Origin: Acaryochloris marina MBIC11017
Lineage (GTDB): Bacteria; Cyanobacteriota; Cyanobacteriia; Thermosynechococcales; Thermosynechococcaceae
DNA length: 32,000 bases
Assembly (NCBI RefSeq): GCF_000018105.1
Contig: NC_009927.1
Location: 150,001-182,000 of the forward strand
Direction: 5' to 3'
In this document: positions 2,039 through 31,352 of the stretch, one piece after another
How positions within the stretch are numbered: the stretch's first letter is position 1
Layout of the letters: each line of letters begins with the position of its first letter
Translations under genes and position numbers: made by a program
The notes under the pieces: model-generated
Told to the model about the DNA's origin: nothing
Seen by the model: the letters and a program-made list of their open reading frames with translations, nothing else
Databases searched by the model: none

Positions 2039-3385
2039 GAGAGTGTTTAGATTTTTGTGTAAGCAGCAGTGTATTCAATAGTTGAATCGTGTTGGGAACA
2101 GAATAGCAAAATGGGACAGCGCCGCCTTCCAATTCAGAATTGGTCTGGTCCATCGCTTCGAAATATTCCTCATCGCTAGAAACATCAATTTGTAGACAGA
2201 CTCTTCATTAGGGAAAACCGCTTTGGTCTTAATCACCTTTCTCAGTGAGCGGTTGAGCGACTCAATGGCATTGGTGGTGTAGATAACCTTACGGATGGCC
2301 ATTGGGTATTGAAACAACGGGGCAACATTATCCCAATGTCGTATCCAGATTTGGCTAATGCCAGGATACGTCTCGTCCCATTTATGGGCAAATGCATCCA
2401 ACGCAGCCTCAGACTCTTCCAAAGTGGCCGCTTGGTAAATGGGCTTGAGGTCTGCAGCTACGGCTCGACTTTCCTTCCACGGCACATGGCGAAGGCTATT
2501 ACGAATAAGATGGACAATACAAACCTGCACCTGGGTCTGAGGGTAGACCGACTCAATCGCTTGAGGAAAACCTTTGAGTCCATCACAGCAAGCAATCAAG
2601 ATATCCTGAGTTCCTCGATTTTTAAGGTCTGTGAGCACCGAAAGCCAGAATTTTGCTCCCTCTCGTTCAGCGGCTCCTATCCATAATCCCAACAGTTCCT
2701 TGTTGCCCTCCACAGTCACTGCCAAAGCGACATAGACAGCTCGCTTGCTGACTTGACCATTGACTTTGATGTTCACATACAGCGCATCAAGATAGACAAT
2801 CGGATACACCTCATCCAGCGGCCTTGAACGCCAGTCTTTGACCTCTTCCATGACGCTATTGGTGACGTCACTAATCAGAGCTTCAGAGATATTGGCCCCA
2901 TACAGCTCCACCAATTGGGCTCGAATATCACGGGTGGTCATGCCCCGAGCATATAAGGCGATGATTTTCTCATCGAGCCCTGCGATGCGTCGCTGGCCTT
3001 TAGGCACCAGGACAGGCTCAAACTCGCCGCAACGGTCACGAGGAATCGATAGGTCCATCTCTCCTTGTTCAGACTGGACGGTCTTTTTCGAGTAACCATT
3101 GCGACTATTTCTGGGGCCATTAGAATTCTCATCACCTGACTGATCGTTGGAGGATTGCTGCAGGTGATGAGTCAATTCACCTGCAAGGGCTCGTTCCACT
3201 AGGCGTTTGCTGAGTCGTTTAAGCAGTCCTGATTCGCCCAGAATATCTTCCGGTTGAGGGTTCTCTCCGATGAGTTCATCTAACAGTTCATCGACTCGAT
3301 TGGGAGCTTTTTTCTTTCTAGACATCGTACGGTCTCCTGATGTGTTTGGATCCTAGACCGCTTACACAAAACTCTGAACAGTCCC
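2039..3385 (-). mobile_element. IS256-family insertion sequence (about 1.35 kb)
   Basis: Imperfect terminal inverted repeats of about 26 bp: GAGAGTGTTTAGATTTTTGTGTAAGC at 2039-2064 against the reverse complement of 3360-3385. The inner 12 nt TTTTGTGTAAGC are identical. Direct duplication TCGGCTT at 2032-2038 and 3386-3392. A single Mutator-type transposase gene lies inside. Confidence 0.85.
2075..3325 (-). CDS. IS256-family (Mutator-type) DDE transposase
   Basis: 416 aa. It has the typical IS256 blocks: RDRCGEFEP, YLDALYVNIK, WIGAAEREGAKFWLSVLTDLKNRG, CCDGLKGFPQAIESVYP, QVCIVHLIRNS and YTTNAIESLNRSLRK. Confidence 0.92.
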   Translation of the reverse strand: MSRKKKAPNRVDELLDELIGENPQPEDILGESGLLKRLSKRLVERALAGELTHHLQQSSNDQSGDENSNGPRNSRNGYSKKTVQSEQGEMDLSIPRDRCGEFEPVLVPKGQRRIAGLDEKIIALYARGMTTRDIRAQLVELYGANISEALISDVTNSVMEEVKDWRSRPLDEVYPIVYLDALYVNIKVNGQVSKRAVYVALAVTVEGNKELLGLWIGAAEREGAKFWLSVLTDLKNRGTQDILIACCDGLKGFPQAIESVYPQTQVQVCIVHLIRNSLRHVPWKESRAVAADLKPIYQAATLEESEAALDAFAHKWDETYPGISQIWIRHWDNVAPLFQYPMAIRKVIYTTNAIESLNRSLRKVIKTKAVFPNEESVYKLMFLAMRNISKRWTRPILNWKAALSHFAILFPTRFNY

Positions 3386-3577: not shown

Positions 3578-4366
3578 TCAATTTTCTGATTTGTCATCAC
3601 CTCCTTTAGGGACCGTAGCCCGTTCAGAAATGGCCGGCAGATCCAAATCAATTTTTCGACCTTTCAATCGATAGGAAGCGCCAGTTAGCTTCATGTACTC
3701 ACCATGGTGAAGCGTCCGGTCAATAATGGCCCGAGCCAACTCTTCATCATGCAAAACTCTTCCCCAATGCTTGAGGGGTTTATTGGTGGTAAACAAAATG
3801 GGCTTACCTTTGAGATAGCGCTGGTCCACCACTTGAAACAGAACATCCGCTGCGCCCGGTCCATAGCCGAGATAGCCCATCTCATCAATCACCAGTACAT
3901 TCGGTTGAAGATAAGGTTTGAGGGCAAGGTTGAGATCATGAGCAACTCTCAAGTCATTAATCAGGGCAGTCGCCGTTGTAAAACGGGCTGTAAAGCCGTT
4001 CTGGATTGCCTTATAAGCAATTGAAACACATAGGTGTGTCTTCCCCGTCCCGGGTGGACCTTCGAGGATCAATGAGCGGTGCTCACTGACTAATTCAGGG
4101 CCCAGAAATCGCCCAAGCATTTGTCGTTTGAGATCACTCTTGAAGGTGAAATCAAAGGTTTCAATCGTGGCCTGAAACGGAAACTTGGCTTTGGCCACCT
4201 GATTGGCAATTCTATTTTCTGCTCGTTGGGCAATCTCCTCAGAGACCAGGCGTTCGAGGAACTGAGTATAAGACCAAGCCTCTTTCTCAGCGATAGGCGT
4301 CAGTTCCGGTAATACTCGTTGGACTGTACTCAACCCCAATCGCTTCAGCATGATGTCTAACGTCAT
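3578..4366 (-). CDS. istB: IS21 helper ATPase IstB
   Basis: 262 aa from ATG 4366. Walker A GPPGTGKTHL, Walker B VLVIDEMGY, and the typical IstB N-terminus MLKRLGL. Confidence 0.9.
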   Translation of the reverse strand: MTLDIMLKRLGLSTVQRVLPELTPIAEKEAWSYTQFLERLVSEEIAQRAENRIANQVAKAKFPFQATIETFDFTFKSDLKRQMLGRFLGPELVSEHRSLILEGPPGTGKTHLCVSIAYKAIQNGFTARFTTATALINDLRVAHDLNLALKPYLQPNVLVIDEMGYLGYGPGAADVLFQVVDQRYLKGKPILFTTNKPLKHWGRVLHDEELARAIIDRTLHHGEYMKLTGASYRLKGRKIDLDLPAISERATVPKGGDDKSEN

Positions 4367-5826
4367 GGAGCAGTACCTCCTTCGGAGGTGTTCTGGAGAA
4401 GATGAGAGTCGGCACAAGCGTGGGGATGTTCAACAAACTCCAAGAGATATTCACTGCCAATACAACGGGCTTCTACTGCCAGTTCAATGGCTGCCAACAA
4501 CTCTGTGCGCCCCACTTTCTCATACAGCTGATAAGTCAGATCTACATCCTCTGCCCAAGCTTGGGGACGGCGATGCACCAACTCCGTCAGATAAGGCTCC
4601 ACTGACGGATCTAAATCCAACAAGATCTGACGCTGGGCATAGGGCTTTTTGTGGGGAGAGGCAAAAAACTCTTGAGCATGTTCACTCAGGACACTGGACT
4701 TGCCGTTTTCCGGAAATCTCGGATGGACGCCCAAACAGCGTTTCCCTTGATAGATGCTCACTTGCTCTTGCTGCAAATGTAGAGTCACGGTTTGACCCAC
4801 TGTATGGCCAGGGACGGAGTATTCTATCCCTCGATAGTGAACCCGCGCCGTGAGCCGGACGACGACACTCACTTTAAAGGCATAGGTTTGAGCATTGTGA
4901 TTCAACGGTTGTAGAGGTTCACGCTTGAGTCGCACAGCAGGAATCTCACCAGTGGCATCACAAGGTCGCTGCTCATTAACGTGATTCATCCATGCTTGCA
5001 GCTGTTGATGAACATCCTCCATGTCCTGAAAGGTCCGACCACAAAAGAAGTTACCTTTGACGAACCCCACCAGATTCTCAACAGACCCTTTCTCTTGTGG
5101 ACGATAGGGCCAGCAAGCGAGGGGAATCAAGCCGCAATCAACTACGAACTGGCCGAAGCGTTCTGTCCAATGGACTTTGACGCTGCCATCTTCTTGAATC
5201 TCTCTTGATTTGACTGCACTACTCATATTGTCAAACACCCCCATCATCGGCACTCCACCAAAATGCTCAAAGGCTTTGAGGAGGCTACGAACGACCGTCT
5301 CTTGTTGTTCGTTATCGACGATCTGGATATCGACAAATCGAGAGTATTTCAGTCGGGACGCAAAGAAGCGAACCAGTTTACGAGTGCCATCTGCAAAGGT
5401 AACCCAACGCTGGCCAAAGTCATGCTGGGAAAACTCTCCAGGTAATCCCTCAAAACGAAGGATAGGCTTTGGGGGGGCCTTGGGTCTGAGGCGTCTAACT
5501 AATTCATAGACAGCTGTTTTGCCACCGGTGTAACCCGCTTGTCTGAGTCGAGCCAGAATCTCTTGGCCTTTGATGAGGCCATCTTCAGGGGCACGAGGCT
5601 CTTGAAACCATTCCAAGATCTGCTCTTCATATTGGCTAACTGAACTGGGTCTGCCCATGTTTCTAGATTTCCGGAAACCCTCTTCATCAATTTCGGTGAT
5701 CTCGGGTTCTTTCTCAATCCGTTGAATACTTTTTTCACTAATGCCCGTGAGGTCTCGAACTTCTTTTTGGGAGACCGTCTTCTTTCTAAGTTTTTGCACC
5801 ACGTAACGCTCCAATTGCTTGTACAT
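4363..5826 (-). CDS. istA: IS21 transposase IstA
   Basis: 487 aa from ATG 5826. The ORF-track start at 5880 is a TTG lying in the terminal-repeat region. N-terminal HTH followed by a DDE core. The stop overlaps the istB start. Confidence 0.9.
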   Translation of the reverse strand: MYKQLERYVVQKLRKKTVSQKEVRDLTGISEKSIQRIEKEPEITEIDEEGFRKSRNMGRPSSVSQYEEQILEWFQEPRAPEDGLIKGQEILARLRQAGYTGGKTAVYELVRRLRPKAPPKPILRFEGLPGEFSQHDFGQRWVTFADGTRKLVRFFASRLKYSRFVDIQIVDNEQQETVVRSLLKAFEHFGGVPMMGVFDNMSSAVKSREIQEDGSVKVHWTERFGQFVVDCGLIPLACWPYRPQEKGSVENLVGFVKGNFFCGRTFQDMEDVHQQLQAWMNHVNEQRPCDATGEIPAVRLKREPLQPLNHNAQTYAFKVSVVVRLTARVHYRGIEYSVPGHTVGQTVTLHLQQEQVSIYQGKRCLGVHPRFPENGKSSVLSEHAQEFFASPHKKPYAQRQILLDLDPSVEPYLTELVHRRPQAWAEDVDLTYQLYEKVGRTELLAAIELAVEARCIGSEYLLEFVEHPHACADSHLLQNTSEGGTAP

Positions 5827-6047
5827 CTGCACTTGCCACTGATTGAGATGACTATTTTCATCCTGCTCAGAGAGTGGCAATTTTGGAGACAGACTTAACG
5901 GAATGAGTGCAGTCGGAGTTTCAGGAATTCACACCTTACCCTATGATTCGTTTGAGCCTCTTTGACTGCTAGGTTTAATTCTCGGATTTTCTTAGTCATG
6001 ATTAGTCATTTTTAAGATGATTAACAGATTCCTGGTAGAAACTGAAG

Positions 6048-9797: not shown

Positions 9798-10175
9798 TTA
9801 ATGCTCAGACGGCAGCAGCACAACGCCGTATTCCACATACAGCTTGATTTCTGGCAGGACGAAATCAGTGAAAGGAATATCTTGGGTAATGACAGGGCTG
9901 CAAGTACTGGGGCTGTCTTCGTAGCAGGCTAAGACAGCGCTATGGTCGTCGTTTACGGTCAGCAACCAAAGCTGGAATTCTTGGAGGTTGGGATTGTACT
10001 TGATGAGTCGCACTCGTTGATAACTTGCGATCGCGTCGAGGAGCCAAAAGGATTCCCCTTTCTCTGCGAGTGTTTTGACGCCTTCTGTGTATCGGATGCC
10101 CAGCCAATGCTGATAGTGAGATTCACTGCAATGACAATGGGCAAGTTCAGCTTGCAGTTCTGAAGCGGTGATCAT
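9798..10175 (-). CDS. DUF6876-like protein
   Basis: 125 aa. SESHYQHWLGIRYTEGVKTLAEKGESFWLLDAIASYQ resembles the G(T/S)E.YYRH...YTDGV..LAE...AYWLLD.I signature I associate with DUF6876 proteins of conjugative elements. Confidence 0.5.
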   Translation of the reverse strand: MITASELQAELAHCHCSESHYQHWLGIRYTEGVKTLAEKGESFWLLDAIASYQRVRLIKYNPNLQEFQLWLLTVNDDHSAVLACYEDSPSTCSPVITQDIPFTDFVLPEIKLYVEYGVVLLPSEH

Positions 10176-10220: not shown

Positions 10221-10236
10221 GGGGCAGAGGTGCCCC
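10221..10236 (-). terminator. GC hairpin GGGGCACCTCTGCCCC after the cassette-1 acidic-protein gene
   Basis: 6-bp GC stem with a 4-nt loop, 10 nt after the stop. The identical 16-mer occurs after the cassette-2 gene (22965-22980). There is no U-tract, so it may be a stabiliser or attenuator rather than a full terminator. Confidence 0.45.
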
Positions 10237-10245
10237 AGAATATTC

Positions 10246-10548
10246 CTAGAATTCTTCGTTTTCGGCTTTAATCTGGCGAGTGGTGGGGATGGTGCGCCAA
10301 TCAGCTAGCCAGTGGTCATCACCATAGAAAGTTTTGACCCAACTCTCTAGGCGAGGCTGGATCAGACCTGGCTTAGATTTGACGGGTGCATAGACTTCAA
10401 ATAAATCGCCACCCTCACGTACACCGGGGTATTTTTCAATCTGCATCTCGACTGCAATCACTTCAGGATGAAGGGGATCAGTGACTTGAGAGTCAACAAG
10501 CTGAAGCAGTTCAGTGACGGTGGTGGGTGCTTCGGTTAAAGTTGTCAT
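10246..10548 (-). CDS. small acidic protein, paralogue of 30588-30899
   Basis: 100 aa with about 17 D/E against 9 K/R. It is roughly three-quarters identical to the 103-aa ORF at 30588-30899, which is on the opposite strand. The same conserved leader precedes it. Confidence 0.7.
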   Translation of the reverse strand: MTTLTEAPTTVTELLQLVDSQVTDPLHPEVIAVEMQIEKYPGVREGGDLFEVYAPVKSKPGLIQPRLESWVKTFYGDDHWLADWRTIPTTRQIKAENEEF

Positions 10549-10662
10549 AGTTATTGCCTTTGATTGGGTTTTAACTAGGGCATCCGAGAACTTACCAGGC
10601 GACCGGATGCCTTTGTTTGTATGTAATAACTATATCACACTGAGTGTGTAAAATTACACACT
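10549..10662 (-). promoter_or_regulatory. cassette-1 control region: palindromic operators, -10 TATAGT, conserved hairpin leader
   Basis: On the minus strand the order is operators, -10 box, leader, start codon. The operators are AGTGTGTA-aaat-TACACACT (10643-10662) and the overlapping CACACT-g-AGTGTG (10636-10648). TATAGT lies at 10629-10634. The leader is ACAAACAAAGGCATCCG...CGGATGCCCTAGTTAAAACCCAATCAAAGGCAATAACTATG, with the stem at 10579-10586 and 10604-10611. Confidence 0.6.
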
Positions 10663-10763
10663 AAATAAAACTATAGACTTATTGCGTGTGTATAAAAAGT
10701 ACACTATGATGCAAGTTGTCTAGCACTAATGCATCATAGATGTGTGGTGTTGGAATAGTTGCT

Positions 10764-10937
10764 ATGACGAATAAATCACGAATGACGCGAATTAACATCA
10801 CTGTCCCGGAAGATTTACTTGAAGAGTTCAAAGAATACTGTGACTCGCAAGTAAGATCTGTTTCTTCTCAAATTCAGTTTTTTATGAAACAGGCAGTTGA
10901 GTCTAATCAGAAACAGAAAGGGAATGAAAGTTCTTGA
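10764..10937 (+). CDS. ribbon-helix-helix (CopG/Arc-type) regulator, cassette 1
   Basis: 57 aa from ATG 10764. Beta-strand RINITVP, then helices EDLLEEFKEYC and SVSSQIQFFMKQAV. It is divergent from the cassette-1 promoter. Confidence 0.7.
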   Translation: MTNKSRMTRINITVPEDLLEEFKEYCDSQVRSVSSQIQFFMKQAVESNQKQKGNESS

Positions 10938-13282: not shown

Positions 13283-14050
13283 AAGTTACTTCGCTTAAAG
13301 CATACCAATCTCTTCAAGCCTTGTGCGTATATAAGTCTTATCCGTAACCTTACAAAAATCATTTACCTTACAAAGGGTTTACTCCTGAGAGACTGTTTTA
13401 AGAATCTTTCGATAGTTTTATTATCGCTGGCTAAATTAGATTTTAATAATTTTGTTTAAAACTCATATCAGGAAAAATTATTTTTCTATATTCGATTTTT
13501 TTAAAAATATTTTGCATAGGAGCATTCCAATAGTAACAGAAAAATTTGCCCAGCAGGCAACAAATAATATCGTAAAAGCTAGTTGAAATAAACATTTCAA
13601 GACTTCTGTATTTTTTATGTCCTTACTCTTTGAATGGTAGCTTCTGAATAAGCTGTACTGTGCGATCTTTACCTGTAATTGAGATATTACAAGCCTGTAA
13701 TTCCTTTCTCTTAAGGGTTCCAAGGTAGAAGCTCATAATTATCCTAATATTCTAAATGGGACAGTCCGACCTCTACTGGGTAAATTTTTCTGATGCTATT
13801 GGAAGGCCATAAGAATAGATAAATATTTAAATCAATCTCATACCTATGTTTATGATCCCCAATTGTTCAACTATTGCTTTACTCTCTGAATGGCCCATTA
13901 TCCAATAAGATTTTGGCATTGGGGATCAAATCTAAAAAATCATTAAAAAATTCGCTTACCCTAAAAATGGTGGTGCTAAAGTATTCACAATTAAATAAAC
14001 AAGTTCAGTTCCGGGACTAGAACTCACTATTGATATTGGAGGTGAGTTTA

Positions 14051-14140
14051 ATGCTGAAAAAAAATTACTTCTGGGTGATATTAAAGGCAATTGTAAATAT
14101 AATTCTTTATACAATAGAGAATTATATAAATGAACGTTGA
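14051..14140 (+). CDS. candidate 29-aa hydrophobic peptide (MLKKNYFWVILKAIVNIILYTIENYINER)
   Basis: ATG preceded by GGAGGTGA with a 5-nt spacer (14039-14046). The frame is open over 29 codons in DNA where stops should be frequent. The hairpin TAGCTCTA-cagaagt-TAGAGCTA (14162-14184) follows. Confidence 0.3.
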   Translation: MLKKNYFWVILKAIVNIILYTIENYINER

Positions 14141-14262
14141 CTAGTATTTATCGTATTAAGGCTAGCTCTACAGAAGTTAGAGCTAATCAATCTCTTTGGT
14201 ATATCTGGCAAGGGATTTAGTGATAAGGAGTAAAACGACATAAAAATTATCCCAAGCGAATT

Positions 14263-14307
14263 GAAGACATCTGAAGGTTCTGAAAATCAATCTCTTCAGA
14301 TGTCTTC
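14263..14307. repeat. perfect 14-bp inverted repeat GAAGACATCTGAAG / CTTCAGATGTCTTC with 17-nt spacer
   Basis: Arms at 14263-14276 and 14294-14307. The spacer contains one AATCAATCTC motif. Confidence 0.7.
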
Positions 14308-14584
14308 TGATAGCAAGAAGCAATTGTAAAAACTACTGATATATGGAAATATAAGACCCATTCTTACTTACCAAATCATTTAGTATAAGAGTATATTTTA
14401 TATAAACAACTTTTGGTAATCAAAAATATCAATCGATAGATTTATCTTGTTGAAAAACCATAATATCAACTCTATAGATAGGATTTTCATGAGATTGATT
14501 TTATATTGAAGCTTGTTTTTTTAAGAGCTTACTAATATTGCCTAGGCTATACAAATTCTGTAGAGAAAACAAAAATCTAAGCTC

Positions 14585-15743
14585 ATGACTGTACTTCAAC
14601 TCAAGCTTCAGACGCTACGAAAAGAACTCAATGCCGCTCACCTAGAGCGCAAGTCTGTGATTGATGGCTTGCTGGCTACATTGTTGGCGAACCAAAACGC
14701 CTTGCTGTATGGGCCACCGGGAACGGGTAAAAGTTTGATACTTAGAGAGATTTGCTCTGCGATCGCAGATGCGAATTTCTTCCAGCGCTTGCTTCACAAA
14801 GCCATGTCTCCTGATGAAGTCTTAGGCCAAATCAGCCTTAAAGCATTGAAACAAGACATCATGAAGCGCAACACCAGCGGCAGACTTCAAGAGGCTCACT
14901 TGGCTTTTCTAGATGAAGTCTTTAGAGGCAATGGGGTATTGCTCAATAGCTTGCTGGAGCTGATGAACGAGCGCACCTACGACAACCCAGACAAACAGAA
15001 AAGCCCCCTTCGCTCGATAGTCGGTGCAACGAACTCGATTGACTCAGGGAGCGACCTAGAAGCGTTTGCCGACCGCTTTATTTACAGACCCTGGATTTTC
15101 GATCTAAAAAACCCCCAGCTCTACTAAGAAGCTGTTGGGTTGGACTATCAAAGGCAATCGGCCCCAGGTGAGTCAAGGTCTGATTTCATTAGCCGAACTC
15201 GATCAGATGTGCGCTGAGATTCAACAGGTGAAATTCACCGATGCCATGGTGGATGCTTTTACTGAGATTATCCATGCTCTGATCCGGGATGGCTTTGTGA
15301 TTAGTGCCCGCCGCAGAGTAAAGTTGCTGCAGCTTGTTCAGTGTTACGCCTACATCCAAGGGGACGAGCAAGTATATCTAGAGCATTTGCATGAGTTATT
15401 ACCTCAGTGCTGCTGGAAATCAAAGATTGAGGAAATTAGAGAAATCAAGAAGCTGATTGAAACCTCAGCACCCATCGCGAAAAAGAAATTAGCGGATATC
15501 GCTAAAGCTGCTCAGGGTGAAGTCTCAAGGCTGGAAGAGCAACTGAATAATCAAATGTTAGACCATACCCATCATGTCAATGCCGCTGATTTTGCCCGGA
15601 CGCAACTTACCAACTTATCCAGCAGCTTAGACAAGGTTCAGGCCGACCTATGCCGCAATGGAGCCAGCCAGAAAGCCAAAGCTGAGACCGAACTAAAAGC
15701 CCAATCAGACCGAATCAATGAGCTAGTTGAAGGCTTGTATTAA
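14585..15743 (+). pseudogene. RavA/MoxR-like AAA+ ATPase, reading frame broken by a +1 shift in an A6C5 run
   Basis: ORF 14585-15127 has Walker A GPPGTGKS, Walker B AFLDEVFRG, LLELMNER and EAFADRF. ORF 15135-15743, one frame over, continues with FVISARRRVKLLQLVQCYAYIQG...CCW, which is RavA-like (SDRRWKK...LLKDCLW). The second frame is open from 15108. The homopolymer AAAAAACCCCC lies at 15106-15116. Confidence 0.8.
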
Positions 15744-15745
15744 TC

Positions 15746-17197
15746 ATGTACACCGAACTCAAGGCACAGGACCTAAACCCCATCACCACCGAAGTCAGCG
15801 AAACCTCTAAGCTGTTTTGGCAAGACTATCTCAACTCAAATCCTGCAATGGTGGAGGTGACCTCAGAGACCAATATCAAAACCCTCAATAGCTTTGCTCT
15901 AGAAGTCTTTCACCGTCTCTATTACTCCCCCGATCCTGAATGGTTACCGGAAAAGCCAGAACATCAATGGGCGCGAGTGTTGCACAACCAGCTTAGTGAG
16001 TCTGAAGAATTCCAAAATCTAACCCTGACATGTGCGGGTGATCCATTGGGGGCAGCAATCGCCGCGCAATCCATGATCACCAATCTGTACCGACAGCTTG
16101 AAGAGGCCAGCGACGAACAGGAAATTGATGAACTGGATACCCTGAGAGCGCAGGCCCGACAAGCGAAGCGGGATGGTAGGGAGGATTTGTTTCAGCAGCT
16201 TCAAGCCCAAGGGCAGGCCATGTCCCAAGCAGCCCAAGCCTTTGCCCAAAAGCTGGAAGAGAAGGAAGGCGAAGGCATCGGCGAGAGTGTTGAGGATGCC
16301 GAGGGAGAAGTACAGGAGAAAAAAGACGAGCTAGAAGCATTGGGAATGAGCTGGGGGAATGAGTCGGGTGACCGCAATCCCACTCCCACCGGAGAGAAAC
16401 TAAAGCTTGCGGCTTTGATTGAACAGCGGCCACAACTCAAAAAGATACTAGCCCTCGCTGGAAATGCCTTGGAGACAGCCAACCGCAAACGCCGACAACA
16501 CCAGACTGAGACGGGATATGGTGAACTAGTGGGGATTACCACGGGGAATGATGTCTCACAGATTTTGCCTCAAGAGTTGGCAAGGCTTTCAGATTCCAGA
16601 CAGAAACTGAGTTTTTATCGAGACTTTCTAGAAGGTCAGTTGTTTCAGAATGACTTACAGGCCCCAGAGGAGAAGGGCAAAGGTCCGATGGTGATTTGCC
16701 TGGATTGCTCTGGATCGATGGTTAAGGGCAACCGCTTTCTCTGGTCGAAAGCCCTGATCGTTGCGTTGGTGAAGTTGGCCAACGAGCAAGAACGGGTGGT
16801 TTCGCTGGTATTGTTTGAGTCTATTTGTTACGACCCTATCTATTTCCATCCCAGAGAAGATATTGACCAGCTGATCCGATTGCTGGTCACGAGTCCCACG
16901 GATGGGGGAACCGAGTTTCAAAGACCACTGGAACAGGCCAGAGACATCATTGAGCAAGACGAGGACTACAGCGAAGCCGATATTGTCTTTATCACGGATG
17001 GGATTGCGCCATTGAGTTCTGTGTTCTTGCAAGAGTATTCAGATTCCCTAGAAAAATTGAAAACAGATCTCTTTTTATTAGAGATTGAGCCAAAGCAGGG
17101 ATGGTCAAACGAACTCAGGACGTTGGCGAGTCAGTCATGGGTAATTGATGCGAATGGCAATTTTGAGGAGTTAGGGGCTGTATTTACGGCTTGTTAG
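15746..17197 (+). CDS. VWA-domain protein, ViaA-like partner of the AAA+ ATPase
   Basis: 483 aa. The ATG is 2 nt after the ATPase stop. MIDAS motif VICLDCSGSM, then FITDG later in the protein. An acidic coiled-coil linker lies in the middle. Confidence 0.85.
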   Translation: MYTELKAQDLNPITTEVSETSKLFWQDYLNSNPAMVEVTSETNIKTLNSFALEVFHRLYYSPDPEWLPEKPEHQWARVLHNQLSESEEFQNLTLTCAGDPLGAAIAAQSMITNLYRQLEEASDEQEIDELDTLRAQARQAKRDGREDLFQQLQAQGQAMSQAAQAFAQKLEEKEGEGIGESVEDAEGEVQEKKDELEALGMSWGNESGDRNPTPTGEKLKLAALIEQRPQLKKILALAGNALETANRKRRQHQTETGYGELVGITTGNDVSQILPQELARLSDSRQKLSFYRDFLEGQLFQNDLQAPEEKGKGPMVICLDCSGSMVKGNRFLWSKALIVALVKLANEQERVVSLVLFESICYDPIYFHPREDIDQLIRLLVTSPTDGGTEFQRPLEQARDIIEQDEDYSEADIVFITDGIAPLSSVFLQEYSDSLEKLKTDLFLLEIEPKQGWSNELRTLASQSWVIDANGNFEELGAVFTAC

Positions 17198-17919: not shown

Positions 17920-20421
17920 TTAGCACGTAGCAACGGGTTGGCCAGAATTATACGCTATAAGCTCTGAGGCATTTGCACTTAAAAAAATGTTCCCCTTCTT
18001 ATCACGAATCCATCCTTGTGCTTCGACGATAGTAGGTGGGGACGCTGAGTTGGAAGATAGATTATTGTTCTCTACCCCCGAGGATCCGGGTTTCACAGGT
18101 AACTTAGAAGAAGGCGATTTTTGCTTCAATAATTGAGGTTGTCGTAAGTCTTGCCAAACAGAGGGTGGTGTTTGTAAGTGGTGAGGGCCTAATGGAATAC
18201 CACCGCGTCCAATATCCACAAAAGTGCTGTTCCCTAAAGTTTGACCTGGACGACACTTTGTAGTGATGGTTTTAGGAACAACGATTGTTTCGGGGAGTTT
18301 TTTCAAGCCATCAGGGAATAAAATTGCTACAAAACCGTTGATTTGAGGTTCATTCTGAGAAAAAGAAACAATATCGCTGAAATTAGTTAACTGGCCACTT
18401 GCTCGAAAACCAAACAGTTCCTTGGCGGTAATGATAATCTGACCACCTTTGCCCACTGAAGAGCTAGCAAAGATATCACTATTTTCAGAGGGAATCGCCA
18501 CAATTTTACTAGCAGTAATCTTGATGTTTCCTCCATCATTAATTCCTCTTCCTTCTGCAGTTATTAAGCTGTTGTTGCGCATCAGTAAATAATTTCTAAT
18601 TTGCAAATCAATATCACCACCTTTTCCAGCACTGGATGTTGCCGAAATATTCCCTTGATTTTTTAGCAAAATTTGATCTGCGTTGATATGCAAAGTCCCT
18701 GCGTTGCCTATTTCATCGTTTCTAACTGTAATTTCTGCACCATCGCTTACTCTTAGAGCTTTGGTTTGGATCGAAACACTCCCCGCTTCTCCTGTGGGGA
18801 TGGGAGAAACTTGAAACCCACTTTGCAATTCGGGGCTTAACTGAATTGTGGACGAACTAATCAAGCTGGGATCCTGGCTTCCTTGATCTACTCCACTAAC
18901 TATAATTTCATCCACAGCAGTGATAATGACGTCTCCAGCGTTACCGCCAGCGAAAGTAGCAGCATCCACCCGAGCCCCATCTTTGATTAACAAGCGCTTT
19001 GTCTGAATGAATAAATCACCTGCGTTACCACTCGCTAAACTAGAAGAAGATAATGCATTGTTAGCACCAACAAGCACGATTCCATCTGAAGCCGAAACCT
19101 TTATATTGCCTCCTTGACCAGCGGCTAATGTGGCTGATGTAACTAATCCGCCATCCTTTACCCTGAGATGCTTTGTTGTGATAATTATGTCCCCTGCATT
19201 TCCTACCCCAAAGGTGCTTGTACTGATGAAGCTCAATAAATTTGGATCAAATGATGTTCCAATTACATCAATAAACTCAGTAGCATTAATGACTAGGGTT
19301 CCTCCTGAGCCAAAACCTAGGGTATTAGCAGAAATAAGTCCCCCTTCTTTTAGTATCAGATGGGGAGTAGACAGATAAATATCACTTCCGCTTCCTGTCT
19401 CTAGAGACGTAGTAATTAAACCACTACTAGTACCAGTGGTTAGATTCGTACCAATGAGCTTGATAGAATCAGCAGCCTTAATCACCAAACGTCTTCCAGT
19501 CTGATTTCCTAGATTGCCAATTCGTATAACAGAACCATCGGTTATGGAAACTTGACCACCCTGTACCTGAATAAAACCAGTAGGTCCTCCCTCCATACCA
19601 GTGCCATCAACTAAAGCAAGCTCAGAAAGGTGAATATCACCAAATCTTTGGACATTTTGGTAATCGAAGGTCCATCCCAATGGAGAAGGAGATATACCTA
19701 CATAACCAGATTTCACTCCGCCTAATTGTATGCTCCCGCCGGGTGCTGTAAGTATACTGCCCCTCAAATCAAGATTTGTCCCTAGCAAAGCCAGTGTTTT
19801 GTTAGGTTTAACAGTCAAATCAAACTCTTGGCTACCTGTACGTCCTGAAAAAGTAACGAAAGGGTTCGTCGATGTCAATTGAAATCTTGGACCTTTCGCA
19901 ATAATATCGGCAGATCTTGAGTTGAACTGCAATCCTAGTGGCACGCCGATAGTTAAATTAGGAAGATTTTGAGGATTTTCTGCACTAAACTCAATATCTT
20001 GATCAAAGATCAGGCTGCTGGCTGTAGTTCCTATGAAAGAGCCATTGAGGTCTAGCTTTGAATGCGGGCCAAAAAATATCCCCGATGGATTCATCAAGAA
20101 CAAGTCAGCATCACCCAAAACTCCCAAAGTACCAAAGATATTGGAGCGATTGCCTCCAGTGACTCGAGTCAGAATAAGGTTGATATTACTGGGGTTATTG
20201 AAATAAACTTCCTGACCAGTTCCAACACTTAATTCTTTAAGGCTATGGAACAGTGTACTTCCCCTTGAAGCACCACCTTTGATTAAAATTCGGTTATTCT
20301 GTAGCTCAACGACTGAATTTTCTCTCAATAATGTCTGATCAGAAGTGACTTGAGCTAATCCTGATTTAAACAATAAACTCCAGATTGATAAAACACTAAT
20401 CAACAGGACTGATTTGTTCAT
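17920..20421 (-). CDS. TpsA-type exoprotein (filamentous-haemagglutinin N-terminal domain, beta-helical repeats)
   Basis: Signal peptide MNKSVLLISVLSIWSLLFKSGLAQ from ATG 20421. TPS-domain motifs LTRVTGGNRSNIFGTLGV and LFLMNPSGIFFGP. Long runs of G/N/S-rich repeats (GNAGD..I). AT-rich relative to neighbouring genes. Confidence 0.85.
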   Translation of the reverse strand: MNKSVLLISVLSIWSLLFKSGLAQVTSDQTLLRENSVVELQNNRILIKGGASRGSTLFHSLKELSVGTGQEVYFNNPSNINLILTRVTGGNRSNIFGTLGVLGDADLFLMNPSGIFFGPHSKLDLNGSFIGTTASSLIFDQDIEFSAENPQNLPNLTIGVPLGLQFNSRSADIIAKGPRFQLTSTNPFVTFSGRTGSQEFDLTVKPNKTLALLGTNLDLRGSILTAPGGSIQLGGVKSGYVGISPSPLGWTFDYQNVQRFGDIHLSELALVDGTGMEGGPTGFIQVQGGQVSITDGSVIRIGNLGNQTGRRLVIKAADSIKLIGTNLTTGTSSGLITTSLETGSGSDIYLSTPHLILKEGGLISANTLGFGSGGTLVINATEFIDVIGTSFDPNLLSFISTSTFGVGNAGDIIITTKHLRVKDGGLVTSATLAAGQGGNIKVSASDGIVLVGANNALSSSSLASGNAGDLFIQTKRLLIKDGARVDAATFAGGNAGDVIITAVDEIIVSGVDQGSQDPSLISSSTIQLSPELQSGFQVSPIPTGEAGSVSIQTKALRVSDGAEITVRNDEIGNAGTLHINADQILLKNQGNISATSSAGKGGDIDLQIRNYLLMRNNSLITAEGRGINDGGNIKITASKIVAIPSENSDIFASSSVGKGGQIIITAKELFGFRASGQLTNFSDIVSFSQNEPQINGFVAILFPDGLKKLPETIVVPKTITTKCRPGQTLGNSTFVDIGRGGIPLGPHHLQTPPSVWQDLRQPQLLKQKSPSSKLPVKPGSSGVENNNLSSNSASPPTIVEAQGWIRDKKGNIFLSANASELIAYNSGQPVATC

Positions 20422-20664
20422 TCTCATCCACATCACAGTCAGTGATTTCTATGGTTGCTGTTTCAAAAAAAAATCGCGCAGATCCCTAGGAAAGTTGTCA
20501 GAGTAAAAATGTTATTTTGCTTGAATTCTTACAAAAATTAATCTTTTCCTGGTTAAATTTTTGTGGTTACGGAGACAATACTCCTATTACTAGGTCTAGG
20601 TAGGGTAGACACTGAATAATGGTTGTGAAGCAATACCAGAATCGAGATCGCAACCCCACCCACC

Positions 20665-22332: not shown

Positions 22333-22554
22333 TTATTCCTTATCATTCTTGGGCCAATCAATAGAATCATCAGCAATTGCAGCGTTAACAATCGCTGATC
22401 GTAGCCATTGTGGCCTATTGTTCATCTGCCGAACGATTTTATCCAGACTGGCGGGTAAGCGAACACTCAAAGGCGTGTCTGCTAATAGCTCATTAGAGTC
22501 TGGAGCTGTTTTGCCAATGGTCAAGTTCTTCAAGCTATTTTTATTGACTGCCAT
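22333..22554 (-). CDS. ribbon-helix-helix regulator, cassette 2
   Basis: 73 aa. Beta-strand LSVRLP, then helices ASLDKIVRQM and QWLRSAIVNAAI. Confidence 0.65.
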   Translation of the reverse strand: MAVNKNSLKNLTIGKTAPDSNELLADTPLSVRLPASLDKIVRQMNNRPQWLRSAIVNAAIADDSIDWPKNDKE

Positions 22555-22744
22555 GGATAGAGCTAACTAATCAACGACTTCAAGAATAGCACAGCAAATC
22601 GAATGTATACATATATAATAAAATCCTCTTGGTTGAATGTATACGTTCGATTAATGCTATAATACTTTCATGAAAACAAAGGCACCGCCCCCGACTACCA
22701 ATCTGAAGCGATGCCCGAGTTAAAAACCACAAAGGAAGTTAACT
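22555..22744 (+). promoter_or_regulatory. cassette-2 control region: GAATGTATAC palindromes, TATAAT, conserved hairpin leader
   Basis: GAATGTATACATAT at 22601-22614, GAATGTATACGTTC at 22635-22648 and TATAAT at 22658-22663. The leader is AAAACAAAGGCACCGC...GCGATGCCCGAGTTAAAAACCACAAAGGAAGTTAACTATG, with the stem at 22681-22688 and 22708-22715. Confidence 0.6.
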
Positions 22745-22957
22745 ATGTTCAATTTAACTGATGTTGAAACCCCCATCCTTCGCTTTGGTACTGAGTTTAT
22801 CGATCCAAACCTATTGGTTGCAGTCGAAGTCTACGAGGACACCCTAGGCGACGGTGAAGCCAGTCAGCCCGCAACAGGGACTAAAGCCCACACTGGCTAC
22901 ATAGATGGCGTTTGCGTGGCCTACCGCTCAGACGGCACCCCGGTAAGCATTGAATAA
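22745..22957 (+). CDS. small strongly acidic protein (70 aa)
   Basis: About 12 D/E against 3 K/R. It occupies the same cassette position as the 100/103-aa paralogues. The segment DPNLLVAVEVYED is weakly similar to DPLHPEVIAVEMQIE. Confidence 0.6.
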   Translation: MFNLTDVETPILRFGTEFIDPNLLVAVEVYEDTLGDGEASQPATGTKAHTGYIDGVCVAYRSDGTPVSIE

Positions 22958-22964
22958 CGTCTTT

Positions 22965-22980
22965 GGGGCACCTCTGCCCC
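22965..22980 (+). terminator. GC hairpin GGGGCACCTCTGCCCC after the cassette-2 acidic-protein gene
   Basis: This 16-mer is identical to the minus-strand reading of 10221-10236. Confidence 0.45.
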
Positions 22981-23013: not shown

Positions 23014-23358
23014 ATGGAAATTATTCAATCCACACCTCAAACCACTATCGCTAAGCTAAACGACCGTTTTCGCCAAGGCGATCACTCCCTCGGTAAAATC
23101 TGCACGACCCAAGCCGTTAACAGTCTTCCCTCAGCCGATCAGCAAGAACTCTTTCGCCTACTCCGCACCTTCAATGACTTCACTCCAGGTAATGACCCTT
23201 ATGGAGAGCATGACTTTGGAAGTATTGAATTTCAGGGTGAGACCTACTTTTTTAAGATCGACTACTACGACAAATCATTGAGATACGGCACTGAAGACCC
23301 CAGTGATCCAGCAAAGACGACCCGAGTTTTAACCCTGATGCATTCAAGGGAGTACTAG
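23014..23358 (+). CDS. DUF3768-like protein
   Basis: 114 aa. FTPGNDPYGEHDFGSIEF...FFKIDYYD...DPSDPAKTTRVLTLMHSREY matches the DUF3768 signature as I recall it (NDP.GEHDFG, KIDYYD, VLT.M...EY). Confidence 0.7.
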   Translation: MEIIQSTPQTTIAKLNDRFRQGDHSLGKICTTQAVNSLPSADQQELFRLLRTFNDFTPGNDPYGEHDFGSIEFQGETYFFKIDYYDKSLRYGTEDPSDPAKTTRVLTLMHSREY

Positions 23359-23789: not shown

Positions 23790-24053
23790 AATTGAACTAT
23801 GAAGCTGCGTTATCGCTATCGAGTTTATCCAACACCAGTTCAAGCCAATCGACTGGCCCAGATGTTTGGTTGCACTCGCGTAGTCTGGAACGATGCTCTT
23901 ACCTTTTGCCAACAACAGTATGCACAAGGAGGTAAATACCCTGGCTCTACAGCCCTAATGAAACAGTGTATTACCAAAGCCAAGCAAACCGAAGAACGAA
24001 GCTGGTTGTCGTCAGTATCTGTCGTTCCATTACAGCAATCTGTCAGAGACTTA

Positions 24054-24951
24054 GAGGCTGTTTGAGAAGTTTTAGTGCTCCTGCGCTAGCCTTCGAACCA
24101 TGAGTCGAATCATCGCCACATAAACAAGCGCTTCAGCCGTCCTAGTCAGCACCTCATAATCTTTATTAAGACGTCGAGACCACAACAACCATCCAAACGT
24201 CCGCTCTACAATCCATCGTTTGGGAATAACCTGAAACCCCGCTAGATTATCTGAGCGTTTGACTACTTCCAAGACATATTGAAAACGGTCCATTACCCAC
24301 TTCATCAAAGCTTGTCCTTGATAGCCTGCATCAGCCCATATCCGAACTAGACGGGACAAACTCGCACCTTGGCGTTGAGCTTTCCAAAACAGTATTTTGG
24401 CCCCTCGTTGGTCAGAGATATTTGCAGCGGTGACCATCACCATCAGAACCAGCCCCAAAGTATCAACGAGCACATGACGTTTACGACCTTTGACCATTTT
24501 CCCACCATCAAACCCAATCAAGTGACACCGAGGATTGCCGACTTTGACCGATTGAGCATCGCAGATAGCGGCACTGGGACTGGGATGACGGTCTTCACTC
24601 ACCCGCACTTGCATGCGTAGATGTTCATTGATTTGACTCCAAGTCCCATCATCGCGCCACCTTCGAAAATAGCTATAGACCGTTGACCAACAGGGAAAAT
24701 CATGAGGTAGTTGTCTCCACTGACAACCTGTAACCACGAGATAAAAAATGGCATTGAGAACACTGAGCATATCAGTGGTGCGAGGTCTACCTCCAGGTTT
24801 AGCAGCAGGAATCAAAGGCTCAAGTAATTCCCATTGCAGGGTGGTGAGGTCGCTATCATATGCTGTAGGCATTGCTCTCTAGGTCCTGTCCAGTGTTTGT
24901 GTATTGACAGATTAGTACCTTGAGAGCTTTACTCACTTCTCAAACAGCCTC
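24054..24951 (-). mobile_element. IS5-family insertion sequence (898 bp)
   Basis: Perfect 17-bp terminal inverted repeats: GAGGCTGTTTGAGAAGT at 24054-24070 and its complement at 24935-24951. The 3-bp duplication TTA lies at 24051-24053 and 24952-24954. Confidence 0.92.
24072..24872 (-). CDS. IS5-family DDE transposase (266 aa)
   Basis: N-terminal LTTLQWELLEPLIP...GRPR...NAIFYLVVTGCQWRQLP, the IS4/IS5 N-terminal domain. DDE core DAQSVKV...WADAGYQG...VERTFGWL. Confidence 0.9.
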   Translation of the reverse strand: MPTAYDSDLTTLQWELLEPLIPAAKPGGRPRTTDMLSVLNAIFYLVVTGCQWRQLPHDFPCWSTVYSYFRRWRDDGTWSQINEHLRMQVRVSEDRHPSPSAAICDAQSVKVGNPRCHLIGFDGGKMVKGRKRHVLVDTLGLVLMVMVTAANISDQRGAKILFWKAQRQGASLSRLVRIWADAGYQGQALMKWVMDRFQYVLEVVKRSDNLAGFQVIPKRWIVERTFGWLLWSRRLNKDYEVLTRTAEALVYVAMIRLMVRRLAQEH

Positions 24952-29699: not shown

Positions 29700-30119
29700 T
29701 CAGGATGCACTTAATAGATAACCTAAACCTAGCCCTAAACCAGCGGAGGCATACAGCAGAAAACCTCGGACAACATAATTTAGAGTCCCTTCCAAGTTTT
29801 GTGCAGCGAGGTTTAATGTCATCCAAAAACATAAAACCATAAACCATCCAATAAAGGGGTTAAAACCAATCGAACTAGCTGTATAAATCGCAAGCATCGT
29901 CAGAAAACTACCGAAACAAAATAAACCCACTCTTAACTTTTTCAACCAAACGACATCACTTAAAGTTGGTAGTGAAATACACCCAACCAATGCAGCAATT
30001 CCTGTTAACTCCACTATTCCAAACCATAAAGGTGCCAGGTGATAGCCTAATACCACGCCACCAATGGAGTTAACCAATAGCCATACAATGATGCTGCTCA
30101 TAGTCGATAATTTGAGCAT
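29700..30119 (-). CDS. polytopic membrane protein (139 aa, about 4 TM)
   Basis: ATG 30119 overlaps the RHH stop (TGATG). It is hydrophobic throughout. Confidence 0.6.
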   Translation of the reverse strand: MLKLSTMSSIIVWLLVNSIGGVVLGYHLAPLWFGIVELTGIAALVGCISLPTLSDVVWLKKLRVGLFCFGSFLTMLAIYTASSIGFNPFIGWFMVLCFWMTLNLAAQNLEGTLNYVVRGFLLYASAGLGLGLGYLLSAS

Positions 30120-30337
30120 CAAGACTTAGTAAGCAGCCCTTCATTTTCAGCCCCGATCCTCGCCTGTTGTCTCAACCAAGCTGTAAGCTCTCCTTTGCCT
30201 GGATACTTGGTGGCAAGGGCTTCATATACTTCTTCTTCCAACCGAATACTCAGCGACTTAGCAAGCTTACCAGTCGTATTGTCTGCCCTTGGTAATGGTT
30301 CCAGGTGGTCAAAAGTAGGGTTAGGATTTCTTCCCAT
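30119..30337 (-). CDS. ribbon-helix-helix regulator, cassette 3
   Basis: 72 aa from ATG 30337. Beta-strand LSIRLE, then helices EEVYEALATKY and ELTAWLRQQARIG. The TTG-started 93-aa version would begin inside the operator. Confidence 0.6.
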   Translation of the reverse strand: MGRNPNPTFDHLEPLPRADNTTGKLAKSLSIRLEEEVYEALATKYPGKGELTAWLRQQARIGAENEGLLTKS

Positions 30338-30587
30338 ATCTGAATACACATAGTTACGAGACAAGCCTAGCATAAGCATCAGATATATGCTTGCATTCAA
30401 GCCTATATATCTATGGAAACTTAATGCTCAAAGTATACAGAAATAAGATATAAACAAGTGTAAACAATCTCTTTATATGCTTGAATGCAAGCATATAAGT
30501 GTTATAATGCTTACATGCAAACAAAGGCACCGCGCTTCCGACCAAAGACTCGCGATGCCCTAGTTAAAACCCAACAAAGGATTAACT
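30338..30587 (+). promoter_or_regulatory. cassette-3 control region: 10-N4-10 palindromes, TATAAT, conserved hairpin leader
   Basis: TATATGCTTG-catt-CAAGCCTATA at 30384-30407 and TATATGCTTG-aatg-CAAGCATATA at 30474-30497. TATAAT at 30503-30508. The leader is CAAACAAAGGCACCGCG...CGCGATGCCCTAGTTAAAACCCAACAAAGGATTAACTATG, with the stem at 30526-30534 and 30551-30559. Confidence 0.6.
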
Positions 30588-30899
30588 ATGACCACTTTAC
30601 TCAAAACTCCCACCACCGTCACTGAACTTCTTCAGCTTGTTGATGCTCAAGTCACTGATCCACTCCATCCAGAAGTCATTGCCGTTGAACTGCAAATCGA
30701 GCAATACCCCGGTGTACGTGAGGGTGGCGACTTGTTTGAAGTCCTCGCTGCCGTCACCAGCAAGCCTGGTCTTCTCGGTGATCGTCTCCGGGCATGGGTT
30801 CAGTCTGAGTATGGCAATGATTACCGCTTAGCAGATTGGCGCACCATCCCCACCACTCGCCAGATCGAAGCTGAGAAGAACTTTGAAGACGAATTCTAA
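30588..30899 (+). CDS. small acidic protein, paralogue of 10246-10548
   Basis: 103 aa with MTTL..PTTVTELLQLVD.QVTDPLHPEVIAVE.QIE.YPGVREGGDLFEV...LADWRTIPTTRQI shared with the other copy. Confidence 0.7.
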   Translation: MTTLLKTPTTVTELLQLVDAQVTDPLHPEVIAVELQIEQYPGVREGGDLFEVLAAVTSKPGLLGDRLRAWVQSEYGNDYRLADWRTIPTTRQIEAEKNFEDEF

Positions 30900-30907
30900 G
30901 CACATTC

Positions 30908-30927
30908 GGGGGGCAACACCGCCCCCC
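30908..30927 (+). terminator. GC hairpin GGGGGGC-aacacc-GCCCCCC after the cassette-3 acidic-protein gene
   Basis: 7-bp GC stem, 9 nt after the stop, with no U-tract. It sits in the same position as the hairpins of cassettes 1 and 2. Confidence 0.45.
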
Positions 30928-31278: not shown

Positions 31279-31317
31279 TCTCCAAGTACCTTAGTTTGAA
31301 GCCAAGGTACTTGGAGA
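31279..31317. terminator. bidirectional intrinsic terminator (14-bp perfect stem)
   Basis: TCTCCAAGTACCTT (31279-31292) pairs with AAGGTACTTGGAGA (31304-31317). TTGTTTGTTTA follows. It lies between convergent genes. Confidence 0.7.
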
Positions 31318-31352
31318 TTGTTTGTTTATCCCATCTCGTTAAGCTTAGTTAC

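Follow-up and report, generated by a model that had tools for sequence, protein, structure and literature searches.

A structured leader reused behind different promoters on cyanobacterial plasmids, and a possible antisense RNA encoded opposite it

A leader of about 75 nt was found in three copies in a 32,000-nucleotide stretch of DNA from Acaryochloris marina MBIC11017 (contig NC_009927.1, positions 150,001 to 182,000 of the forward strand), referred to here as the window, whose numbering is used throughout. Every copy is located between the first open reading frame (ORF) of an operon and an extended −10 promoter, to which a separate operator and a divergently encoded repressor gene belong. 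The observations support a selected structured unit that has been reused behind different promoters, operators and first genes, and the leader is an undescribed and widespread motif, RNA or hairpin, that is specific to plasmids and belongs to a general kind already known, either a cis-antisense RNA or a structured leader. The reading favoured here, to which we give somewhat less than an even chance, is that the strand opposite the leader encodes a FinP-like cis-antisense RNA of about 72 nt, which would be convergent with the repressor-controlled promoter and would block translation of the first gene. Judged from the sequence, a small RNA gene on the opposite strand appears to fit at least as well as a sense RNA and, we think, better.

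The three copies had been placed by the preliminary description of this DNA at 10549-10622 (minus strand), 22670-22744 and 30515-30587, and were recovered there by sequence, by alignment (possible over about 95 nt) and by a covariance model of the leader built from 10 leaders, with which they scored 90-92 bits. The next-best match of this model in the window reached 21.5 bits and was the terminator ending operon 3. The motif GATGCCCNAGTTAAAA occurs three times in the window against 0.02 expected, and AAACAAAGGCA exactly three times. All three sense promoters are of the extended −10 type (TGnTATAAT or TGnTATAGT), namely TGATATAGT, TGCTATAAT and TGTTATAAT, each just downstream of its operator. 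The palindromic operators are distinct from one another and the divergent regulators share a pairwise identity of only 16-23%, in agreement with the earlier statement that operators and repressor genes differ between the copies. Regulator 1 is a clear RHH_5/CopG protein, and regulators 2 and 3 are ribbon-helix-helix (RHH)-like by pattern. The first ORFs of copies 1 and 3 are paralogues with 77% identity; that of copy 2 is unrelated to them (E = 0.76). Two spacings needed correction: the −10 box is followed by CAT after 5 nt and not 6-7 nt, and CAAAGG by TAACTATG after 2-4 nt and not 3-5 nt. A conserved leader peptide was rejected because an upstream ATG is limited to copies 2 and 3, and no trans partner complementary to the hairpin interiors was found in the window at up to three mismatches.

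The hairpin of the leader is about 35 nt long and has no internal −35 or −10 boxes. Its interiors differ among the three copies within this single plasmid, although the loops of copies 2 and 3, previously described as completely different, are partly similar (CCGAC..CCAA). Covariation of the stem, also proposed earlier, was borne out in a larger set of 12 distinct versions, in which the arms were cut by hand and the 8 stem positions beside the homologous interior were compared. Changes on both sides were found in 7 of the 8 pairs, and 93.8% of the cells were paired against 74.7% in shuffles, none of 500 shuffles reaching the observed value; controls with slid partners gave 20-57%. The variants include GGCAUCCG/CGGAUGCC, GGCACCGC/GCGGUGCC, GAAAGCGC/GCGCUUUC and GAAAGCAC/GUGCUUUC. 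The preliminary description made no mention of the C.A mismatch that forms the fifth pair of copies 2 and 3 on the sense strand.

The best match of the window was plasmid pREC1 of Acaryochloris strain MBIC10699 (96.6% identity), which has all three leader copies. A plasmid BLAST search with the leaders returned 8 further Acaryochloris leaders on other plasmids, in the same order of divergent small regulator, promoter, leader and small ORF, and the annotated second genes at 7 of these loci were ArdC-like (3), DUF6876 (2) or hypothetical (2). The 3′ CAAAGG box, said earlier to double as Shine-Dalgarno (SD) sequence, is nothing more than that; as a second conserved motif it was rejected, since the same position is a variable SD (GAGG, AAGG or CAGG) in the other 8 Acaryochloris leaders. 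With the copy 2 interior CCCCGACTACCAATCTGAAGCG, intergenic matches of up to 100% over 25 nt were obtained on plasmids of Nostoc, Calothrix and Trichormus. A scan of a genome collection with this interior gave 21 matches at about one per genome, of which 19 were cyanobacterial (Nostoc, Calothrix, Chlorogloea, Crinalium, Cyanocohniella and a Chroococcales metagenome-assembled genome, MAG), and a second plasmid BLAST search added some 20 Nostoc and Trichormus plasmids with variant interiors. The search for further homologues recommended in the preliminary description thus returned Acaryochloris leaders as well as Nostoc, Calothrix, Trichormus, Chlorogloea and Crinalium hairpins; because such relatives exist and the stem covaries, two of the grounds on which that description would have been abandoned were absent.

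In the relatives outside Acaryochloris the hairpin begins 4-7 nt past the −10 box and about 30-40 nt upstream of the first gene, and a divergent small regulator gene, usually of the helix-turn-helix (HTH)/XRE type, was present at the loci whose annotation or ORFs were examined. The first gene usually encodes a protein of about 290 amino acids (aa) without Pfam match, with an unrelated gene in Calothrix, Crinalium and Chlorogloea, and no homology of first ORFs was seen across lineages. Over about 40 plasmid loci in at least five genera, the position of the hairpin relative to the promoter is fixed while the first genes are unrelated. The 24-nt hairpin interior is identical in Acaryochloris, Nostoc, Calothrix, Chlorogloea and Crinalium, and all flanks differ. 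Such identity across cyanobacterial orders is not explained by a plain terminator and, as the flanks have wholly diverged, hints at a sequence-specific partner. Readings of the interior as tRNA-like, CRISPR-repeat-like, integron attC-like or a small mobile repeat were dropped, given about one copy per genome and boxes that do not fit. In scans of metagenomes and viral contigs the Acaryochloris-specific flanks did not turn up outside Acaryochloris plasmids: the gapped Acaryochloris-leader pattern gave 18 metagenome matches, all chance matches in coding DNA, and both patterns gave only chance matches in viral contigs. Rfam 15, searched at the gathering score and at E <= 10 with the window, the three leaders and six relatives, returned no family and only chance microRNA or snoRNA matches far below threshold, and no paper that prints the motif sequences of either strand was found in a full-text literature search. 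We also noticed an analogous antisense layout at a second, unrelated gene start in a Crinalium MAG (L010, 7140-7215; a weak match of the model, 20 bits, E = 0.18), where a hairpin based on HIP1 (GCGATCGC) precedes TTTTAAT at some 25 nt from the start codon.

The sense features of module 1 are on the minus strand. The palindromic operator AGTGTGTAA/TTACACACT (10643-10662) is followed by the promoter TGATATAGT (10629..10637), the A-rich 5′ box AAACAAAGG (10610..10620), the covarying hairpin GGCATCCG / CGGATGCC (10579..10611) with 8 Watson-Crick pairs, and a second stem-loop UAGUUA...UAACUA (10548..10577), the loop of which contains the SD in the sense direction and the anti-SD CCUUUG in the antisense direction; the pairs of this second stem-loop are invariant and so show no covariation. 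The first ORF (10246..10548, 100 aa) has no Pfam or NCBIfam match and is followed by a DUF6876 gene (9798-10175), and the RHH_5/CopG-like repressor (Pfam E = 2.1e-19) is encoded divergently at 10740..10937 on the plus strand. Modules 2 and 3 read on the plus strand, and copy 1 is opposite to copies 2 and 3 in pREC1 as well. In module 2, the operators AATCGAATGTATACAT / ATGTATACGTTCGATT (22597-22612 and 22637-22652) and the promoter TGCTATAAT (22655..22663) precede the hairpin GGCACCGC / GCGATGCC (22681..22715), whose interior CCCCGACTACCAATCTGAA is identical to Nostocales plasmid hairpin interiors; the first ORF (22745..22957, 70 aa) is followed by a DUF3768 gene (23014-23358), and the divergent 73-aa regulator (22333..22554, minus strand) has an RHH-like sequence pattern without a Pfam match. 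Module 3 comprises the operators TATATGCTTG.A.TGCAAGC.TATA (30384-30407 and 30474-30497), the promoter TTGAAT-16-TGTTATAAT (−10 part at 30500..30508), the hairpin GGCACCGCG / CGCGATGCC (30526..30559) and a 103-aa first ORF (30588..30899), with a divergent regulator of up to 93 aa (30119..30400, minus strand) that has the RHH-like pattern LSIRLEEEVYEAL and no Pfam match. In copies 2 and 3 the fifth hairpin pair, C.A in the sense direction, becomes U.G in the antisense direction.

The preliminary description took the leader for a functional structure that moved or was retained as a unit; the selected, reused unit stands, but sense RNA and single-stranded DNA had been treated as the only options and a possible RNA gene on the opposite strand was overlooked. 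Several features set the two strands apart. On the antisense strand the outer stem is paired throughout in all 10 distinct Acaryochloris hairpins (78 Watson-Crick and 7 G.U pairs, 85 cells), whereas on the sense strand the mid-stem C.A mismatch interrupts 7 of the 10. The RNAalifold consensus gave two clean stem-loops at −15.8 kcal/mol for the antisense strand and one interrupted hairpin at −9.3 kcal/mol for the sense strand, and single-sequence folds agree: copy 1 antisense forms two stem-loops and a U tail at −24.7 kcal/mol (z = −2.9), copy 2 folds at −26.8 antisense against −14.5 kcal/mol sense, and copy 3 at −28.6 (z = −3.7) against −18.4 kcal/mol.

The invariant sense box AAACAAAGG (plus strand of copy 1: CCUUUGUUU) reads on the antisense strand as UUUGUUU, a U-tract directly after the G+C-rich stem. 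An antisense stem of 8-10 pairs without mismatches and followed by UUUGUUUG, as found in 10 of 11 leaders, has the anatomy of an intrinsic terminator, and the UUUGUUU tail is matched by AUUGUUUGUUU, the tail of the terminator that ends operon 3 in the window. A simple terminator scan flagged the antisense side for copies 1 and 2, on the plus strand at 10597-10612, then TTGTTTGTAT, and on the minus strand at 22693-22677, then TTTTCATGAA. At the other end, 10 leaders have ACT NTA and one has AAT TTA as codons 3-4 of the first ORF, irrespective of the remaining protein sequence. These codons read in antisense as TAnAGT or TAAATT, with T1, A2, A4 and T6 invariant in 11 of 11 and position 3 free. 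The neighbouring Thr codons 2 and 7 vary synonymously, and in the codon usage here ACT makes up 26% of Thr, xTA 29% of Leu and GTA 13% of Val codons. The conserved block begins with the U-tract and reaches about codon 6, even though the first ORFs are otherwise unrelated. Its mean pairwise identity is 0.80 for the leader and 0.75 for codons 1-6, against 0.62 upstream of the −10 box and 0.62-0.65 past codon 6; the conserved block thus has the extent of such a putative antisense RNA gene plus its −10 box. Within the hairpin interior GAYU-N3-ARUC of Nostocales and type-I sequences, the antisense U.G (sense C.A) is kept while the central three nucleotides are ACC, GCG, CGC or GGT. The first ORFs of all 11 Acaryochloris modules, otherwise unrelated, have in common the N-terminal motif M-x-T/N-L/V-L/T-x-T-P (in the window at 10531-10548, 22745-22768 and 30588-30611), which could reflect an antisense promoter, a recombination boundary or a functional N-terminal peptide.

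From these features the cassette may be pictured as follows. Unless its own repressor, an RHH or HTH protein encoded divergently, shuts it, the strong extended −10 promoter would give an mRNA. The first 75 nt or so of this mRNA would form the hairpin, followed by a weak stem-loop in which the SD is presented and which abuts the AUG. In the opposite direction, codons 3-4 of the first ORF conceal a −10-like box, TAAATT in copy 2 and otherwise TAnAGT, which would drive a convergent transcript of about 72 nt that begins at about the complement of the start codon. The candidate boxes are TAAAGT at 10537..10542 (plus strand; complement of ACT TTA) for copy 1, TAAATT at 22751-22756 (minus) for copy 2 and TAAAGT at 30594-30599 (minus) for copy 3, and the RNAs would extend, with approximate ends, over 10547..10620 (plus, 72-75 nt), 22673..22746 (minus) and 30518..30589 (minus). 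Stem-loop 1 of the RNA (AGUUA...UAACU), if the RNA exists, would place CCUUUG in its loop opposite the SD, and the transcript would end at the hairpin, where the fully paired G+C-rich stem and UUUGUUU would act as intrinsic terminator. The countertranscript is predicted to pair with the entire 5′ untranslated region (UTR), to occlude the ribosome-binding site and probably to trigger cleavage of the duplex. A post-transcriptional lock would in this way be added to the transcriptional one on the ArdC-like, DUF6876, DUF3768 and DUF4326 operons, which we take to be plasmid-establishment operons. The cassette and its copy number, its conservation and stem covariation, the setting of promoter, operator and repressor, and the strand-asymmetric pairing with the U-tract are shown by the analysis, whereas antisense transcription, the ends of the RNA and its inhibitory outcome are all inferred from sequence.

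A number of results weigh against the antisense RNA. When only the hairpin interior was shuffled, the antisense folding advantage proved mostly compositional (mean z −0.65 antisense, +0.48 sense), the antisense interior being G/U-rich because the sense interior is A/C-rich, and the asymmetry in folding energy is accordingly weakened as proof of strand. The C.A/U.G signal of the outer stem is a single alignment column and probably inherited. No conserved −35 box was found, and the consensus promoter scan made no call at the antisense site. The argument from codons 3-4 is only suggestive, since the third base is likewise invariant in 13 of the 36 (36%) conserved degenerate codons of one ORF family. 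In the Nostocales leaders no consistently placed antisense TANNNT box was found, only CATAAT/CATGAT over the start codon being constant, and their lower stems show no strand bias in G.U pairs (10 versus 9); in the Nostoc lower stems L039, L042, L043 and L045 it is the sense strand on which G.U pairs extend the stem to 13 pairs. The exact conservation of AAACAAAGG exceeds what a U-tract requires. The same cassette in a Chroococcales MAG (L008, contig JBBSOP010000163.1, 7296-7330) keeps the orientation of outer stem and flanks but has the interior of its hairpin inverted with respect to the gene downstream, which could stem from a template switch or inversion across the stem, or from an assembly artefact. 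Transcript orientation in the published A. marina RNA-seq study was predicted and not measured (PMC5295598). In view of these strand controls (Nostocales stems, codons and shuffles) the sense RNA hairpin may be important too, as is expected in a sense/antisense pair and is also compatible with a purely sense-strand element.

Such an element, a cis-acting 5′-UTR structure without any antisense RNA, is the strongest competitor, though rather unlikely in our estimate. It could be a stabiliser against 5′-end-dependent RNase E or J, a binding site for a translational regulator or a put-like leader that modifies RNA polymerase, with the second stem-loop tuning access to the SD and AUG. The Nostocales hairpin fits well here, since with transcription start sites placed from the −10 boxes it lies at about +1 to +3 of the mRNA, the classic position of a 5′ stabiliser. 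The Acaryochloris hairpin, at about 11-12 nt from the likely start, is poorly placed for that role, and with the C.A mismatch its sense form reaches just −7 to −9 kcal/mol. Sense leaders nevertheless fold better than shuffles (z = −2.8 to −4.9), the Nostoc sense-strand G.U extensions and the conservation of the 5′ box and of AGUUAAAACC past the needs of pairing or of a U-tract point the same way, and an A/C-rich interior less structured than its shuffles would suit a displayed single-stranded loop. Left unexplained are the invariant TAnAGT in codons 3-4 and the U-tract nature of the A-rich box, and no FinO/ProQ or other RNA-binding Pfam domain was found among the approximately 40 window ORFs scanned.

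A second GC-rich hairpin is located just past the stop of the first ORF, as GGGGCACCTCTGCCCC at 10221..10236 (minus strand) in module 1 and equivalently at 22965-22980 and 30908-30927 (both plus strand) in modules 2 and 3. The motif gave 5 matches against 0.23 expected and was present in all 8 Acaryochloris modules checked. It has the form GGGGCAYCNNTGCCCC (GGGGGGC..GCCCCCC in copy 3), lies about 7-12 nt past the stop of every first ORF, even behind the unrelated ORF of copy 2, and occurs also in L027-L031 and L040. It lacks a U-tract, and in most modules the C/A-rich leader of gene 2 that comes next (ACACCCACTCGCTACAYAGGG) is conserved as well. The hairpin may act in processing or stability, or as a weak attenuator. 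Operon 3 ends at 31279-31330 (plus strand) in a strong intrinsic terminator, a 13-bp stem CTCCAAGTACCTT/AAGGTACTTGGAG followed by ATTGTTTGTTTAT, the tail of which is similar to the UUUGUUUG tail on the antisense side of the leader hairpins.

The conservation of such other non-coding parts, the GGGGCAYCNNTGCCCC hairpin and the C-rich gene 2 leader, is what speaks for a passive relic of mosaic modules, in which leader, first codons, post-ORF1 hairpin and gene 2 leader would merely be conserved linkers of recent paralogues whose regulators and cargo are swapped through homologous recombination, and the hairpin would have no dedicated function beyond promoter, SD and terminator. Copies 1 and 3 are indeed obvious paralogues, and the Acaryochloris-type leader was found on Acaryochloris plasmids only, the metagenome and viral scans having given just chance matches. 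Compensatory changes in 7 of 8 stem pairs, an interior identical across orders with differing flanks and a promoter-relative position fixed in about 40 loci with unrelated first genes make this explanation distinctly improbable.

Very improbable is an element acting at the DNA level, be it a single-stranded hairpin on the transferred strand (a priming/ssi site or single-stranded promoter, a role allowed for in the preliminary description), a cruciform or an operator for a shared protein: the operons do carry leading-region-type genes (ArdC-like, DUF6876, DUF3768, DUF4326), G.T wobbles are tolerated in DNA hairpins, with the G.T-containing strand being the template strand of each operon, and the lack of strand bias in Nostoc and the inverted L008 interior are neutral for it, but one transferred strand cannot present all three hairpins alike when copy 1 is on the opposite strand, the hairpin lacks the −35 and −10 boxes that Frpo-type single-stranded promoters carry, and both the compensatory stem changes, for a sequence-specific double-stranded operator, and the three different interiors within one plasmid argue otherwise.

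Among known systems, FinP/traJ of the F-like plasmids is closest to the cassette, and RepX/repA of RSF1010 has the same design. FinP alleles vary in the upper parts of the stem-loops and conserve the lower stem and the flanks, and the leader copies do likewise. FinP is a cis-encoded countertranscript of about 75-80 nt from a conjugative plasmid, with two stem-loops and then a 3′ U stretch, as is here predicted; its complementarity covers the 5′ UTR, the ribosome-binding site and the initial codons of the gene that opens a plasmid operon, and the mRNA leader folds into mirror-image stem-loops (PMC8136791). The leader is not a member of the FinP family, since neither by sequence nor by covariance model does it resemble FinP or any Rfam family, and the window ORFs scanned include no FinO/ProQ-domain protein. 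The host is moreover a cyanobacterium, three paralogous copies lie on one plasmid, each behind a different repressor-controlled promoter, and in place of a transfer activator the RNA would target small ORFs that precede ArdC, DUF6876 or DUF3768 genes.

Face-to-face promoters a few tens of bp apart are known from RNA-OUT/RNA-IN of Tn10/IS10 and from sar/ant of phage P22, where a short antisense RNA begins within or beside the first part of the target ORF, whose ribosome-binding site it covers; the P22 sense promoter is under the dedicated RHH repressors Arc and Mnt. The cassette as predicted would share the promoter layout with both, and it shares an RHH-repressed sense promoter with P22, but its overlap is the entire 5′ UTR of about 75 nt, the predicted antisense terminator abuts the sense transcription start, and no homology to either exists. 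That abundant cis-antisense RNAs do exist on cyanobacterial plasmids is clear from asRNA1 of the Synechocystis PCC 6803 plasmid pSYSA, which overlaps the small-protein mRNA ssr7036 and involves RNase E (PMC9978351). It differs in being a single locus that controls replication priming and copy number, like ColE1 RNA I/II; no sequence similarity was seen, and Synechocystis plasmids were not among the plasmid BLAST matches. As for leaders acting in sense, the E. coli ompA 5′ UTR has a 5′-terminal stabiliser hairpin, and the put elements of HK022 are two-stem-loop leaders of about 70 nt behind two different promoters of one replicon. The leader resembles these in being a promoter-proximal hairpin reused before different operons, and in Nostocales it appears to begin essentially at +1. 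The Acaryochloris hairpin differs, being preceded by about 11 unpaired nt and weakened by the C.A mismatch; no similarity to put was found, and as the GC hairpin after ORF1 is without a U-tract, no clear terminator for put-like read-through was seen.

An extension of the FinP-like reading, which we regard as unlikely, is that the three cassettes are paralogous countertranscripts that cross-repress all three establishment operons in trans, their conserved parts being bound by a cyanobacterial or plasmid-encoded RNA-binding protein functionally analogous to FinO/ProQ. A near-identical anti-SD stem-loop is common to the cassettes, so that cross-repression in trans would be possible. The tops of the terminator hairpins are divergent; lower stem, tail and interior would be kept from Acaryochloris to Nostocales by protein recognition. 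We know of no FinO/ProQ protein in cyanobacteria.

Some other features of the window are recorded here. A TnpB gene (an RNA-guided nuclease of the IS200/IS605 type) is apparently split by an insertion sequence that carries a 266-aa transposase (23799-24065 plus, 24072-24872 minus and 25012-25914 plus); its equivalent in pREC1 is an intact 404-aa gene (L004, 26873-28087). Just downstream of the TnpB remnant, a 387-aa ORF (26458-27621, plus) has a sub-threshold match to the RNA-guided endonuclease IscB (89 bits, cut-off 175). A MoxR-VWA pair of the 'MoxR-vWA-beta-propeller ternary system' type is encoded at 14585-15127, 15135-15743 and 15746-17197 (plus), with the MoxR ATPase split into two ORFs, which may be a frameshift or a pseudogene. 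MoxR-VWA-NACHT is found in pREC1, and in the window other ORFs replace the NACHT gene, among them one for an 838-aa protein with a filamentous-haemagglutinin N-terminal domain (17920-20436, minus). Far along the extended minus-strand operon headed by leader copy 1, in its distal part, lie a Mutator-family transposase gene (2075-3325) and IS21-like istA/istB (3578-4417 and 4363-5880), the latter assigned via the annotation of pREC1. The region 13300-14580 is low in G+C (0.37), has no long ORFs and many promoter-like matches, and includes 35-nt inverted repeats (13522-13556 / 13773-13807; 86% complementary, 216 nt apart) that look like a miniature inverted-repeat transposable element, as well as a perfect 14-nt inverted repeat at 14263-14307.

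To our knowledge, almost nothing is known of how the genes that large cyanobacterial plasmids express upon entering a new cell are controlled. The leader is a compact and portable control element, present at about 40 plasmid loci in at least five genera and absent from Rfam. If a countertranscript is indeed made, it would be, as far as the search showed, the first FinP-like system found in cyanobacteria, would place a second lock on top of the repressor of ArdC, DUF6876 and DUF3768 operons, and would help to trace the RNA-binding factor that underlies the unusual conservation of the hairpin interior. Should cross-repression also hold, there would be a phylum-wide, plasmid-specific RNA layer over the zygotic induction of anti-restriction and establishment genes. 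With either an antisense RNA or a sense-strand element, the unit of promoter, operator and leader is a ready-made part for cyanobacterial synthetic biology and a marker of plasmid establishment modules.

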